Assembly (NCBI GenBank): GCA_947054505.1
Contig: CAMRWU010000001.1
Span: 30,464-94,463 of the forward strand
DNA length: 64,000 bases
Direction: 5' to 3'
Source of the DNA: an uncultured Pseudomonadota bacterium
Lineage (GTDB): Bacteria > Pseudomonadota > Alphaproteobacteria > RF32 > CAG-239
Positions 21,001-30,000 of this stretch are shown here, one piece after another. Within the stretch, counting starts at the first letter, position 1; every line of letters starts with the position of its first letter. The position numbers are program-made.

Positions 21001-24000
21001 CGGCAAAGTCTTTTCATCCTGCAACGGTGGAACCCGCACCTCCTGTCCGGCCGCCAATTTCAATGACGTTTCTGCACGTTTGCCGTCAACCTTAACCTGT
21101 TTCGTCCGTAACAATTTTTGCAAACGCCCAAGCGACAATTGCGGATAATATTTCAAAAACCAGCGGTTAAGCCGCATTCCATCATCCACAGCCTTAACCT
21201 TAATCAGCTCTACGCCAGACATTTATATCTCCTTCAATCAACTAAAGCATAAGATAATCCTAAAAAATTTACAAGCGATTAATCCGGCAACAAAAAAGCA
21301 CAATCCGTTCGGATTGTGCTTTAACATCAGCGGCGACGTTTGCTCAAAGCTTTGTTTCGCACTTTGCCGATACTTTTGGGAACAAACATTTTTTCTTTAG
21401 CCGGCCTGAGGATTTTAACCTCCTCAACCACGGGGAACGATACGGCAGAAAGAGCATAAATGCCGTATTCTTCTGCCAAAACTTTCTTCAAATCAGCCAC
21501 TTCCGCCTCTGTGACACCCACAAAAAGCTGTGCAACATCCGCCAAAGACAGTTGCGAAACCTTTGCTCCGAACAACGTTGAAGCAATTGCTAAAACTCGT
21601 TTTGTGTTCATACAATTATTTAATAAAAATTATAAAATAAAATTGTCTTTTTGCCCAACAGGTATCCGTTAGTTATCTTGCTTAATGCCTTTTTTAGCCT
21701 GCTTTTCAGCCCGCAATTTTTCAAAATATTCTACCCGTTTTTTCACTTCACGCTCAAACCCTCGATCCACCGGAAAATACAACTTGGCTCGCCGCATTCC
21801 CTCCGGAAAATAATTTGCACCGGAAAAACCGTCTTCGCAATCGGGATCATATTCATATCCCTCATGATACCCCAAATCACGCATTAACTTGGTCGGAGCA
21901 TTCAAAATATTTTTCGGCGGCATCAATGACCCTGTTTTCCGAGCCAAATCTCGCGCCGCATACATAGATTTATAAACTGCCGCAGACTTTGGTGCCGTCG
22001 CCAGATAAGCCGTCAATTGAATAATCGCCAAATCTCCCTCCGGTGATCCCAGTCTGTCATAGGTTTCCCAACAAGCAATCGCTTGTGTCACCGCATTCGG
22101 ATCAGCCAAAGACACATCCTCAACCGCAAAGCGTGTCAAACGACGCAAAATATACTTAGGATCCTCACCGGCTTCCAACATTCTCGCCACCCAGTACAAG
22201 GCTGCATCGACATCCGAACCGCGCAAAGATTTATGAACGGCGGAAATCAGGTTATAATGCCCATCGCGCCCCTTATCATAAACCGGCGCCCGCGAACGAA
22301 TAATCTGCACTATGCTTTCTTTGTCAAAAATCTCTCCGGTTTGCGCATAATTCCACACACTTTCCGCCAGGTTAAGAATATAGCGCCCGTCGCCGTCCGC
22401 AGTCTCTTTCATAAACATTCGCGCTTCATCATCAACCGGAAGTTTGCGACCGGTTTCCTTTTCCGCCCGCTGCAAAATCTCCTCAAAATTATCAGGGCTC
22501 AAACGATTCAAAACAAAAACCTGACACCGAGACAACAAAGCGGCATTCAATTCAAACGACGGATTCTCCGTAGTCGCCCCCACCAAGATAATCGTCCCAT
22601 CTTCAACATATGGCAAAAAACCATCCTGTTGAGATTTATTAAAACGATGTATCTCATCCACAAACAACAAGGTTCCTTTACCCTGTGTTGTTCGCCGTTC
22701 TTGCGCATAAGAAAAAATACGTTTCAAATCCGCCACACCGGAAAACACTGCGGAAATTTGTTCAAAATACAAATTGGTATGTTCGGCAATCAAACGGGCA
22801 ATGGTTGTCTTTCCGCACCCCGGAGGTCCCCATAAAATAAACGAAGAAACCTTTCCCGCCCGTATCATCCGACCGAGCGGCGCATTTTCTCCCACAATGT
22901 GATCTTGCCCCACCACTTCCTGTAAGGATTGAGGACGCAACCTATCCGCCAGCGGGCGTTTGACTTGATTTGAAAACAAAGTTTCTTCCATAACTTCACC
23001 GATTCGTTTATCCGAGAACCAAGATAACAAAATTTAATTTCATTTTACAGACTTATTTTTGCCAAACGGATTTTTTGTCTCCGCCACCTCATGAACATCA
23101 AAAGCCTGTTCACCCAACCACCAATCTTGCGCTTCTGCCTCATTTTTCGCCTCTTCCGCAAGTGGCATGGCCTCAACTTCTTCAATCTTATTTACCGCCG
23201 CCTCATAAGCGGATTCCACATACTGTTTCAATTCGGTTTCATCATCAATACCGATATCTTCACCAAAAATCGAATCTTCGGCATCGGGAACATCCATATC
23301 CTGAGCCTTCCGCCGATTTACCAACGCCTCATCCAGAACATAAACCGCATCAACAAGCGCTTTATCCTTAAATTTGTCATCCTGCAAAAAAGAAATATTT
23401 TTTGCCAAAACCGGCCGATGATAAAAGCCTTCAGCCAAAACCAAATGATACCCAAAAGTGTCAATGCTGATATTATGACGAGACAACAATTTTCCGGCCA
23501 AACGATGATAATAATGCGCATCAGCCGGATGTTTGCGTTGCAGATAGCCTTTTCTTCCACCGGACGGAATCTGCACGGATTTAGTTGCATAAACCGCCAG
23601 TTTATTCAGTTGCTGACTCATTATTTTATTATTTTCGGCCATAATTATTTTATAATTCGTGTTAGCCACCAGATTTTCCAAGGCCTCACAACCATACAAC
23701 TTTTCCATCCGATGCAAACTGTTACACAACAGCAAAAAAGAAATATTCTTTCGCGGACCGCGAGCCACGGCCTCTTTTAATGTTCTGATTTTCAACATCT
23801 GTCCCACATCATCCATCACCACGAAAATCGGCAAACCATCAGCGGATTTTGTCTTGCTGAGATGATAACGAAACAACGTTTCAACAAACATTCTCGCCAC
23901 AAACTTCGTACTTTTGGTATTTGCCGTTGAATACAAAGTCACCGGTTCCGTTTTTTTACCATCATTACTCTTAATACCGCTCAGCACAGACAAACTAAAA

Positions 24001-27000: not shown

Positions 27001-30000
27001 ACAACTTCAAATTTCTCTTACTAAACGGCGAAAGTCCGGCATTAAAATAAAGGCTCCGCAAAGACACGGCTCTTTCGGCATTCACCTGAGACTGCCGCCG
27101 TTGCAATTCTATGAGTTTGATTTTTTGATTCAACAACTCAAGATTTTGCACATTTCCGGTACGAGCGCGTTTTTCCAATGCCAAAACTTCTTTTTTCTTC
27201 TTGGCAATCTCGTGTCCCAAGTGTTGATACTCCACATCAGCCAGTTTCACAAGGCAATAATTGATTTGAATTTGCGCCATAATCGCCGCCCCCAACTCAT
27301 CATATGCTTTGCGTCTCAAGCTGTCTTTAAAAAGCGGCGTCGCCTTCTGATAAGAAGTCACGGCATCGACCAAATTATTGGCAATCAAAAGAGCCCGATC
27401 TCGCAATTCTTTTTCATAAAGCTCATGCCCTAAAGAAACCCCGTTAATATCCAAACGGGCAATTTCCGGATAATCGCGGATTGCATTATCCCGAACCTCA
27501 ACATAACTGTAATATTTGCCGTTTTCCTTAGCCGCAGCAAATTCCGTACGATGACGAACGGCGGATTCCTGAAAAATTTCCAAATTATATTTGCGGTCAA
27601 AGTCTTCCAATTCATAAAAACGCCGCCCCTCCAATTCCAGTTTGTCAGGATTCGCCTGAATCAATTGGCTGTATTCCGTCTGTCGAAAAGCCAAAGCACT
27701 GCGAATTTCATTAAGCTTCAGCAAAGCGACTTCCAAATTTTTCTTATATTCAATATCTTCTAGACTTAGCATCCCTTGCCGCTCTTGCTTTTGTTTCAAA
27801 GCCTCCAGATTTTTATTTTCTTTTGCCAGAAGACGATCAATTTCCTTAATTTTTTTCATCGCAAACCATGTGTCATGATGTGCTCGAATTGTTGCCAAAG
27901 CCAAATGTTGAGACGATTTCAAATACAATCCCAATTCTGCGGTCGGACGTTTTTCCTGCAAATGTGAAATACCGTAAATAATGGCGTATTCCAAAACATT
28001 GGAAGCTTCCAAAAGTGAGGAACGATCATTAATATCACTGTTCATAATATTTTTAATAACCGTTTTTGGATCTTGGCTGGGATCCTGAGTAAATATTTTC
28101 TTATTCAGATTCAAGCTGGCATTATCCACATTATATTTGACGGCTCTGGCCATAGACTGATAAACATCCGTCCGCCCCTTAACCGGCTCAATCTCATCCA
28201 CAAAGACCAACCCGTCTTGCTTATAGCGCTCGGAAACATTTTGTGACTGGCATGAAGCTATCAGCAAAACGGCCGCCAGACCGGACCAAAGACGGATATG
28301 GGTAAATTTCATGAGCGCAGCCTTTCTGTAACAATATGTAACAAGAATTTAAAAGCTTTTTATCAAAAAAATTGCTATATGTAAACTAATTAAAATTTAT
28401 CTGTAACTAAATTTGAGGCAAAATTATGGCTGAAAACATCAAAGTTGCCGTTATCGGCGCCGGAATGATGGGTAAAAACCACCTGAAAACATACAAAAAC
28501 ATGAATGGCGTTGAACTGGTCGGCGTTTATGATATTTTTCCTGACGCTTGCAAAGCCGCCGCAGAAATGTTCGGCATCAAAGCTTTTTCCAGCTTGGAAG
28601 AGGTTGCAACAAACGTTAATGCAGTCAGCGTCGTTACCACTTCGGTCACTCATGCTGATGTCAGCGAATTTTTCTTAAACAAAGGTATCCATTGCCTGAT
28701 TGAAAAGCCGTTGGCAACAACCGAAGCTGAATGCAAACGCCTCATCAATGCCGCCAAAGACAATAACGTCACTCTGCTTGTCGGTCATATTGAACAATTC
28801 AATCCGGCTGTTGAACAAATGCACAAAATTCTGTCTGACACGTCAAAAATCTGCTCCATCACAGCACAACGTATGTCAGCCGCCAGCGGTCGTATTACCG
28901 ATGTTGATGTTTCTATGGATCTGATGATTCACGACATGGAAGTTATCCAATCGTTAGTAAAATCTCCGGTTGTTAACGTTCACGCCGCCGCTGTTCGCAC
29001 TCCGTCCAGCCCCAAAGGCAAAGATTACATCACCGCCGTTCTGGAGTTTGAAAATGGTGTTACCGCCAACCTGACCTCCAGCCGTATCACTCAAGCCCGT
29101 GTCAGAACTTTATCTGTCACCACAGACACCAACTACATTGACATGGACTTCATCAACCAAAGCATCAATGTTCATACTCAAGGTCGTATGCCCTACATCA
29201 ATCAAGAAGAAATCCCTGACTGGATGCACTATGGCTTGAAGGGTAGTGTTGAACAATTGTTCATTCCGACCAATCAGCCTCTGCAAGCTGAGTTGACACA
29301 CTTCATAAATTGCGTCAATGGTAAAGAAACACCGCGCATCAGCGGCGAAAATGCTCTTGAAGCTCTTCGCGTTATCTGGACCATTCAGGAAAAACTCGGT
29401 TTTTTCGCACAGGACAACAAACAGCTTAGCATTGCCGCAGAATAAATAAAACTTGCCAAGAAGGTTTTTGGAGGGCATAGTCATTATGCCCTTTTTTTAT
29501 AAAAGAAAGAAAAGACTTTGCGTTACAAATTGACTATAGAATACGACGGCACCAACCTTTTGGGATGGCAACGCCAGCTTGATGGCCCTTCTGCCCAACA
29601 ATATCTGGAAGAAGCCGTGGCAATCCTCAACAACGGCATTCATCAAGAAGTTCCGTCCGCCGGAAGAACAGATGCCGGCGTTCATGCCACAGCTCAAGTC
29701 GCCATGGCTGAATTACAAAGAGATATATCTCCTTTCAAACTGAGAGAGGCGCTAAACGCCAATCTACGCTTGCAAAATGCTCCTGTTGTCGTCTTAAACG
29801 CAGAACCGGCGGAAGAAAATTTTCATCCCCGATTTTCGGCACAGGGTCGCGGTTACATCTATCGCATTCTCAATCGCCGAACCCCATCCGCTTTGAGAGA
29901 AAACCGTGTATGGTGGGTTCCGGTTCCCCTAGACGTTGAAAAGATGCGTCAAGGTGCGCAGTATCTGCTCGGACACCATGATTTCAGTTCCTTCCGAGCG

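Follow-up and report, generated by a model that had tools for sequence, protein, structure and literature searches.

Here we describe a cluster of three genes on the minus strand of a 64,000-nucleotide stretch of DNA from an uncultured member of the Alphaproteobacteria (positions 30,464 to 94,463 of contig CAMRWU010000001.1, assembly GCA_947054505.1; the whole stretch is referred to below as the window). In the order of transcription the genes, termed G1, G2 and G3 (Table 1), encode a lipoprotein whose predicted helical domain derives from outer-membrane factors (OMFs) of the TolC/NodT type, a split pentapeptide-repeat protein (PRP), and a protein of the type IV coupling protein (T4CP) family, a family defined by its service to type IV secretion systems (T4SSs). 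Our analysis indicates that the triad is most likely an undescribed chromosomal module that is neither an efflux pump nor an ordinary secretion system. The three open reading frames (ORFs) lie exactly where the original prediction, made from the sequence alone, had placed them, with gaps of 71 bp (G1-G2) and 9 bp (G2-G3). A further 9-bp gap that it had drawn between G3 and rarA exists because a TTG start was assumed for rarA, and it does not hold under the NCBI gene call on the same contig, in which rarA starts 39 bp further downstream (440 aa versus 453).

Table 1. Features of the three-gene locus in the window and of comparison loci (the latter with positions in the named locus).
Feature	Position	Strand	Basis
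G1, 589-aa lipoprotein: predicted OMF (TolC/NodT)-derived helical domain, linker and SPOR domain	26543-28312	-	
G1 signal peptide and lipobox, residues 1-21, LLIAS-C21	28250-28312	-	sequence reading; C21 invariant in 58 homologues
G1 TolC-like all-helical domain, residues 50-461, without beta-barrel hairpins	26930-28165	-	model, alignments
G1 disordered linker, residues 462-517	26762-26929	-	model
G1 C-terminal SPOR-like domain, residues 518-589	26546-26761	-	
Promoter-like motif TTGTCA-17-TATGAT in the G1-G2 gap	26504-26532	-	consensus scan 10/12; pattern match only
G2, 368-aa cytoplasmic split pentapeptide-repeat protein with mixed-charge tail	25365-26471	-	PF00805; no hydrophobic segment
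G2 conserved basic C-terminal motif ...IAVKEQGRGRS	25368-25403	-	82 sequences
G3, 771-aa T4CP-family protein	23040-25355	-	Pfam, family profile, AF2 model, Foldseek
G3 N-terminal membrane domain, transmembrane helices 13-47 and 89-126, ~40-aa periplasmic loop	24978-25319	-	hydropathy, model, alignment
G3 Walker A GETGSGKTS, residues 169-177	24825-24851	-	alignment
G3 Walker B IFVVMDD, residues 510-516, DD in place of DE	23808-23828	-	alignment
G3 enlarged all-alpha insertion, ~residues 248-460	23976-24614	-	model; TrwB_AAD_bind and PF02534 alignment
G3 acidic C-terminal tail, conserved DWWL.E.AF ... NPF	23043-23318	-	composition, family consensus, L180 homologue
GFO/IDH/MocA oxidoreductase, divergent to the triad	28426-29445	+	Pfam annotation
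rarA (mgsA), immediately 3' of G3	21669-23030	-	MgsA_C 3.8e-58
GFO / OEP-SPOR / PRP / T4CP-like arrangement	L180 8001-15061		
OEP-SPOR gene directly after bamA-ompH-lpxD-fabZ-lpxA-lpxI-lpxB	L181 9001-11001		
OEP-SPOR gene after accD-folC	L182 9001-10869		
HExxH-like unannotated family, just after G3	L059 16297-17634		
HExxH-like paralogues, two or three, in place of G3	L075 8627-11091		

Each of the three proteins has more than 80 full-length homologues, and the alignments used below comprise 58 homologues of G1, 81 orthologues of G2 (82 sequences for its C-terminus), and 51 clade members of G3 together with six outgroup T4CPs (P0080 to P0085), which are the query proteins that retrieved the wider T4CP family. 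A scan with the G1 alignment, with one genome per species, found relatives in 107 species, of which the best 80 were kept. All of these 80 are metagenome-assembled genomes (MAGs) from gut or rumen, labeled variously as Alphaproteobacteria, 'Proteobacteria bacterium CAG:495', 'Azospirillaceae' and Candidatus Scatocola, the last of which is filed under Rhodospirillales by NCBI. This clade of G1-carrying MAGs is one that we take to be the GTDB order RF32.

By its sequence and its predicted structure, G3 is a genuine T4CP homologue, in which a P-loop fold is combined with a membrane anchor and an all-alpha insertion. It exceeds the cut-offs of three Pfam families, PF02534 (T4SS-DNA_transf, 70.4 bits, cut-off 20.1), PF12696 (TraG-D_C, 31.3, cut-off 22) and PF10412 (TrwB_AAD_bind, 28.3, cut-off 20.5). 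The single sequence had no match in the PDB and a profile of the 57-sequence family matched only Cagβ of H. pylori (8dol, E = 1.3e-5). When the AlphaFold (AF2) model (mean pLDDT 85.8) was searched with Foldseek, Cagβ (8dol, 1.2e-13) and TrwB (1e9s, 2e-8) came first and HerA, DotL (7e-6) and VirB4 next, and it is the Pfam and fold matches together that mark G3 as a true homologue of T4CPs. Both hydrophobic segments form long helices in the model, the short periplasmic loop is helical with a conserved AY..WW, and the all-alpha stretch splits the two halves of the nucleotide-binding fold. The T4CP architecture that had been read from the 771-aa protein therefore stands, including its two transmembrane (TM) helices, the Walker A neighborhood (GETGSGKTS...IDNHGT, residues 169-200), VVMDDVG (residues 512-518) and an acidic tail (25 D/E versus 10 K/R in residues 680-771).

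The catalytic residues of this protein are, however, not those of a canonical T4CP. The Walker A motif is kept, with K175 and T/S176 each found in 51/51 clade members. At the second acidic position of Walker B, however, 51/51 clade members have Asp and 6/6 outgroup T4CPs have Glu, and at the sensor position 545 (in the Q..QL motif) 51/51 clade members have Asn, Asp or Ser and 6/6 outgroup T4CPs have Gln, such that P0080 to P0085 all keep DE and Gln, as does Cagβ at the columns aligned to G3. In the FtsK/HerA/T4CP ATPases it is this Walker B Glu that serves as the catalytic base. Given that Walker A is kept and this Glu is replaced by Asp, we infer that G3 still binds nucleotide but hydrolyzes it slowly or differently. 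The role of a 'motor' suggested in the original prediction is thus doubtful, as the canonical catalytic Glu and Gln are replaced throughout the clade. G3 does share with VirD4, TraG, TrwB and Cagβ the two-TM anchor, the P-loop fold split by an all-alpha domain, a WNPL-type motif, the acidic C-terminal extension and PF02534. It differs from them in these two positions, in a larger all-alpha insertion, in its identity of at most 27% to plasmid T4CPs, and in the location of its gene in a core chromosomal locus without T4SS or relaxase genes nearby. It also falls below the cut-off of every NCBIfam model for a named T4CP family, the best scores being 59.8 for VirD4 (cut-off 250), 51.9 for TraG (674), 44 for TraD (728) and 14 for CD1115 (521).

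As had been claimed for the 64 kb, no VirB, Trb or Dot family was found among the window ORFs of at least 150 aa that were scanned or pre-annotated for families, nor was any VirB or Trb family found among the Pfam-annotated genes ~10 kb around G3 in four clade loci, nor VirB2, 4, 8, 9, 10 or 11 within 10 kb of 80 outgroup loci. A T2SSE-superfamily ATPase encoded at 40986-41948 was considered as a VirB11 and rejected, as its best match is to PilT/ComGA (102 bits) and its VirB11 score is 44.6 bits against a cut-off of 250. The nearest annotated relatives of G3 are plasmid T4CPs of Erythrobacter and Thalassospira (25-27% identity), whose genes end full VirB2-B11 operons, and the outgroup chromosomal T4CPs comprise 250 relatives from human-gut and rumen metagenomes (L104-L179) in housekeeping contexts. 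At one of these loci (L107, 5478-12718), four unannotated ORFs, two of them for membrane proteins, precede the T4CP gene, and a gene for a type IVb pilin lies close by; the four ORFs were compared with G1 and have no similarity to it.

G2 is a cytoplasmic protein with a split beta-helix, and its basic C-terminus, which ends in ...RGR, is conserved. It matches the Pfam family Pentapeptide (PF00805, E = 1.7e-46) in five stretches and also gives strong repeat matches in NCBIfam, and no signal peptide or TM segment was found in it. In the alignment of the 81 orthologues two repeat blocks flank a conserved helical insert, and the orthologues have a conserved cap, ECIITPEQIAQALGRVP, followed by a mixed-charge tail, which bears out the earlier description of a pentapeptide-repeat beta-helix with a charged tail. 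The motif R.R occurs within the last 7 residues in 78% of the 82 C-terminal sequences, the last 20 residues of which have a mean net charge of +2.6, and the C-terminus takes the forms ...R.xGRGR or INRGRDGR (...IPRQDRGR in the distant locus L180, discussed below). Orthologues range in length from 318 to 613 aa, as E/Q/R-rich repeats have hugely expanded the tail in some species, among them that of L059 (11892-13733), which encodes the 613-aa protein. The named NCBIfam families Qnr, MfpA, HetL and PipB were all below cut-off on G2, although there is a weak NCBIfam similarity to PipB/PipB2. What G2 has in common with other PRPs, such as the DNA mimics MfpA and Qnr, the PipB2 effectors and the repeat region of DotG/IcmE, is the right-handed beta-helix repeat, but in G2 this repeat is split by the helical insert, is followed by the long charged tail, and belongs to a protein whose gene adjoins that of a T4CP homologue, save in a five-species clade without G3.

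G1 appears, from profile relatives, alignments and its model, to descend from TolC-type OMFs fused to a SPOR domain and to have lost the hairpins of the beta-barrel. The lipobox, helical repeats and LYFNAGL motif (residues 421-427, with Y422 and G426 invariant in the 58 homologues) of the original prediction are all present, and in the model two long helical hairpins are joined by a disordered linker to a C-terminal alpha/beta domain. Profile searches gave a more divided answer. The window protein itself has no Pfam OEP match at E ≤ 0.1 and no SPOR match, while SPOR is matched by 29/58 members of the family and OEP, weakly, by just 2/58. The G1 family profile, searched over 1.84 billion representative proteins, retrieves distant OEP (PF02321) proteins with E values of 1e-11 to 1e-31. 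Four such OEP-SPOR proteins of other Alphaproteobacteria, apparently uncharacterized, have the same domain order as G1 and share its W..NWLE linker motif and SPOR tail. P0258, P0275 and P0296 align with G1 also across the linker and C-terminal domain, and P0289 has a Pfam SPOR match as well. The gene for P0258 lies in the same GFO / OEP-SPOR / PRP / T4CP-like arrangement as in the window, whereas those for P0275 and P0289 stand alone. G1 had no match in the PDB, whether its single sequence or the family profile was searched, and an internal repeat was not significant by hhalign (E 0.16). G1 has the tandem alpha-hairpin repeats of an OMF in its model and a SPOR domain at its C-terminus by fold and family profile.

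What G1 does not have are the four transmembrane beta-strands per protomer that build the 12-strand trimer barrel of OMFs. No strand of three or more residues occurs before residue 518 in what is a confident model, the site of the first hairpin (S1-S2) is reduced to 19-23 aa in 58/58 members, with a gap of ~31 columns relative to canonical OEPs and the OEP-SPOR relatives, and the equivalent of the second hairpin (S4-S5) is highly charged and modeled as a helix. In contrast, the OEP-SPOR relatives align with the canonical beta-hairpins, the first being shortened in P0289. As the hairpins of G1 are deleted or remodeled, an outer-membrane pore is not expected in the clade of the window, and we infer that the G1 of this clade is a lipid-anchored, wall-tethered helical barrel rather than an outer-membrane channel. 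The TolC ancestry and SPOR-like tail of the original prediction are thus upheld and its functioning efflux channel is not. G1 resembles TolC, CusC and the OprM/NodT lipoproteins in its lipobox, its two long alpha-hairpin repeats and its OEP profile relatives, and differs from them in the altered hairpins, in the added linker and SPOR domain, in the missing OEP match of the window protein, and in having no adjacent gene for a membrane-fusion or pump protein, as none of the HlyD, RND or ABC-exporter families was found among the scanned or pre-annotated window ORFs. Like RlpA, it is a lipoprotein with a SPOR domain, but in place of the lytic transglycosylase its N-terminal domain is TolC-like; a septal site like that of FtsN, DamX, DedD and other SPOR proteins is predicted for it. 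SPOR domains bind denuded septal glycan, according to a passage in PMC7901474 (citing Yahashiri et al., 2017).

The evidence that links G2 to G3, which comes from gene order and sequence comparison, is good, and G2 is the older and more widespread partner of G3. Pairs of the G2-G3 type are adjacent in three unrelated flank settings, namely in the clade, in L180, and in L015 together with L100-L103. In the last of these settings the pair occurs without G1, and the T4CP at L015 is P0080 with its DE and Gln; a 761-aa protein encoded near the L015 pair was tried as a relative of G1 and has no similarity to it. L180, a contig of 29% GC, has the whole triad with a GFO gene upstream, and all of its other flanks differ from those of the window. 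Its OEP-SPOR protein (658 aa) aligns with both canonical hairpins, its PRP is 41% identical to G2, and its T4CP-like protein (1005 aa, G3 profile E = 5e-83) has DD, Asn at the sensor position and an acidic tail of great length. Its Walker A is degenerate (GKENSLKT), which is not to be generalized since this homologue is a singleton lineage in the wider search. The same protein has no Pfam hit on record and is labeled VirD4 by JGI. The tail motifs of both G3 and G2 are conserved as far as L180. Residual evolutionary rates, in a crude comparison uncorrected for phylogeny, correlate at 0.77 for G3-G2 and 0.70 for G3-G1, versus 0.35 for G3-AsmA and 0.09 for G2-AsmA.

In an uncultured clade of gut and rumen Alphaproteobacteria, the triad forms a chromosomal module that has been inherited vertically. 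In a tblastn table over the loci of the best 80 of the 107 species, the order GFO (divergent) / G1 / G2 / G3 / rarA / RluC / AsmA is found in ~70 of 80 loci, so that the co-occurrence expected of a conserved neighborhood extends over ~70 species and one distant lineage (L180). Mean identity to the window protein across related loci is 87% for rarA, 81% for GFO (range 71-97% across 80 loci), 73% for RluC, 58% for G2, 48% for AsmA, 41% for G3 and 40% for G1, and G1 and G3 thus evolve fast, at a rate similar to that of the envelope protein AsmA. Compared with the closest species, dN/dS values are 0.043 (G1), 0.029 (G2) and 0.061 (G3), and values of 0.03-0.06 indicate that all three genes are functional and under purifying selection. 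Horizontal transfer was rejected, as the GC content is ordinary, there is synteny with housekeeping genes in 80 species, and no relatives were found on viral contigs. The three genes had been thought to be AT-rich, with a hint of foreign DNA, but their GC contents of 0.427, 0.427 and 0.407 (z scores of -0.5, -0.5 and -1.4) compare with a mean of 0.44 (sd 0.023) for window genes, and the locus is inherited vertically among housekeeping genes. A role in anti-phage defense was also rejected, as PADLOC gave just two weak matches (mads_8, 1e-4; KwaA, 8e-3) and the locus is core.

We propose, by analogy and with a probability of roughly 0.45, that G2 and G3 are a domesticated PRP-T4CP pair that acts independently of a T4SS and is loosely tied to G1, a septal-wall lipoprotein with which the pair probably co-evolves in this clade and in one sister lineage. 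In this proposal G3 would form an inner-membrane hexamer that binds nucleotide and hydrolyzes it slowly. Its role would be that of a nucleotide-gated receptor or switch rather than a conjugative motor, which is what the catalytic substitutions suggest. The basic C-terminus of G2 would dock onto the acidic WW...NPF tail of G3, with G2 serving as a regulator, adaptor or cargo-like ligand. Acidic or extended tails of T4CPs bind partner proteins, and such docking has precedents in the binding of CagZ to Cagβ, of adaptors to DotL and of Arg-rich signals to VirD4. G1 would be a lipid-anchored periplasmic helical barrel that cannot open the outer membrane and that is tethered to denuded (septal) peptidoglycan, its SPOR domain suggesting action at denuded, typically septal, sites. 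The task of the module would hence be linked to the envelope or to cell division, independent of any T4SS, and would be neither efflux nor conjugation. The CagZ-Cagβ pair (PDB 8dol), in which a small co-encoded cytoplasmic protein is proposed to bind and regulate a T4CP, is a parallel by analogy only; CagZ is not a PRP, and Cagβ, which retains DE and Gln, works for a complete Cag T4SS.

Several observations weigh against this proposal. Its mechanism rests on analogy, the replacements of Glu by Asp and of Gln by Asn are conservative such that some activity may remain, and the rate correlations have the limits given above. Adjacency within the clade is weak evidence, because in-clade synteny reaches unrelated housekeeping genes, and most outgroup T4CPs have no PRP neighbor. 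The evidence on T4SS genes is local to the window and flanking loci, and a remote T4SS may exist elsewhere in the genome. A promoter-like motif lies between G1 and G2 (Table 1), and OEP-SPOR genes stand alone in other Alphaproteobacteria. Moreover, an exclusive clade of five species has lost G3 and kept intact G1 and G2, neither of which is therefore strictly dependent on G3. In three of these five species G3 is replaced by paralogues of a protein with an HExxH motif, whose gene in the sister species directly follows G3. The replacement is seen in L075 (Table 1) and, judging by a gap of equal size, also in L085 and L089, and in L072 and L093 G3 was lost without replacement. The motifs of this HExxH family include FYHEAGHNLQ, MFYHECGHALQ and FYHEMSHVLQ.

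The place of G1 is the first point on which another explanation has to be weighed. G2 and G3 might be the only functional pair, with G1 an independent envelope or division lipoprotein that is kept next to them by lineage-wide synteny, and we consider this unlikely while giving it more weight than the other alternatives. The stand-alone OEP-SPOR genes of L181 and L182, the PRP-T4CP pairs without G1, a locus (L027) in which G1 is kept without G2 or G3, the promoter-like motif in the 71-bp gap and the synteny of the whole neighborhood in the clade would all follow from it. It does not account as readily for the recurrence of the triad in L180 with other outer flanks, for a G1-G3 rate correlation above that of G3-AsmA, or for the coincidence of barrel loss in G1 with the lineage of the derived G3. 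Of the three-gene unit in the original prediction, the tie between G2 and G3 thus holds, the tie to G1 is weaker than had been assumed given the stand-alone OEP-SPOR genes and the PRP-T4CP pairs without G1, and G1 is probably a looser partner of the pair.

A somewhat less likely explanation is that G3 is the ordinary VirD4 of a T4SS whose genes lie elsewhere in the genome, in scattered form as in Rickettsiales, with G2 as its adaptor or as an effector whose C-terminus bears an Arg-rich signal, and G1 as an unrelated neighbor. Although G3 has the T4CP profile and fold and an intact Walker A, the whole clade has other residues in place of the catalytic Glu and the sensor Gln, the Walker A of the L180 homologue is degenerate, and the NCBIfam scores for VirD4, TraG and TraD are far under their cut-offs. 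As to G2, its basic C-terminus resembles the signals for VirB/D4 secretion, and some PRPs are secretion effectors, to which its weak likeness to PipB/PipB2 may be added, but it evolves more slowly than G3, unlike a typical effector, and it is kept in the clade from which G3 is cleanly lost. With respect to gene context, the most distant relative, P0085, is encoded ~8 kb from genes for TrbI/VirB10 and a VirB11-like ATPase, and this is the only such outgroup case, against which stand the window, the four clade loci and the 80 outgroup loci without a T4SS gene.

The remaining explanations take the three proteins to be parts of one apparatus or of none. It is a long shot that they form a T4SS-independent trans-envelope apparatus, in which a nucleotide-gated G3 hexamer in the inner membrane would recognize the Arg-rich C-terminus of G2, thread or position G2, and meet a helical barrel of G1 that its SPOR domain holds at septal peptidoglycan; the repeat region of DotG in the Dot/Icm system is the proposed parallel to the threading of G2, and if true this would be a new division-site machine built from parts of conjugation systems and efflux pumps. 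The minimal export or DNA-handling device suggested in the original prediction, in which a T4CP motor feeds a TolC-type outer-membrane channel, is very unlikely. Its parts have the right ancestry, as G1 is OMF-derived and G3 T4CP-derived, and the G1 homologue of L180 still aligns with the canonical beta-hairpins, but these hairpins are missing in 58/58 clade members, and it is this missing pore that makes export improbable in the clade; nor is there a membrane-fusion protein gene among the window ORFs scanned, and G3 has a periplasmic loop of just ~40 aa in addition to its altered catalytic residues. A reading of the locus as what is left of an ancestral conjugative element in decay, its genes drifting toward pseudogenes, is scarcely credible, since the quick divergence of G1 and G3 relative to rarA (40% and 41% versus 87%), the altered catalytic residues and the loss of G3 in one clade are set against full-length intact ORFs in ~70 species, dN/dS values that contradict decay, a similar divergence of AsmA (48%), and motifs common to the clade and L180.

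The combination had been flagged as undescribed, and our literature search likewise turned up no account of the triad, nor one of OEP-SPOR fusions or PRP-T4CP pairs. Each part comes from a known superfamily, with G3 lacking the canonical T4CP catalytic motifs and equivalog-level scores and G1 lacking the beta-barrel of OMFs. Type IV secretion is the service by which T4CPs are defined, and the G3 lineage, long maintained at a core chromosomal locus with its catalytic Glu and Gln replaced and with a dedicated beta-helix partner, would show that this ATPase family has been recruited for another task, and a TolC descendant that has lost its pore and gained an anchor to the septal wall would widen the known uses of the OMF fold. 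Members of the clade are common in the guts of humans and animals, and none has been cultured or studied, so that conserved envelope modules specific to the clade offer one of the few ways into its biology. There is also a practical consequence in that automatic 'VirD4' labels, such as that given by JGI to the L180 homologue, would wrongly imply a capacity for conjugation or secretion.

With respect to the neighboring genes, rarA adjoins G3 in clade loci and not in L180 and is probably a clade-specific neighbor outside the module, while GFO is the only flank that is conserved with the triad outside the clade (in L180). The cell-division regulator KidO of Caulobacter belongs to the same GFO/IDH/MocA family, and such kinship of the divergent GFO gene would fit a division-linked role by analogy. 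In L059, a gene of the HExxH-like family is found in addition to G3 (Table 1).

Elsewhere in the window, the gene at 40986-41948 (minus strand) encodes the 320-aa PilT/ComGA-like T2SSE ATPase mentioned above, and together with a prepilin peptidase (Peptidase_A24; 47901-48674, minus) and DprA (59144-60250, plus) it gives a hint that the lineage may possess a type IV pilus or machinery for natural competence. Adjoining the prepilin peptidase gene is one for a 342-aa protein with a phage-lysozyme domain (48774-49802, minus), and a 245-aa Ion_trans (voltage-gated-channel-like) protein is encoded at 47125-47862 (minus). A cluster of genes for a Ser/Thr protein kinase, a PP2C phosphatase and a VWA-domain protein spans 36897-39782 (minus). 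A 745-aa ORF (6590-8827, minus) and smaller ORFs at 3287-3910, 4174-4629 and 34163-34933 (all minus) have no match to Pfam at E ≤ 1e-5 or to NCBIfam at E ≤ 0.001.

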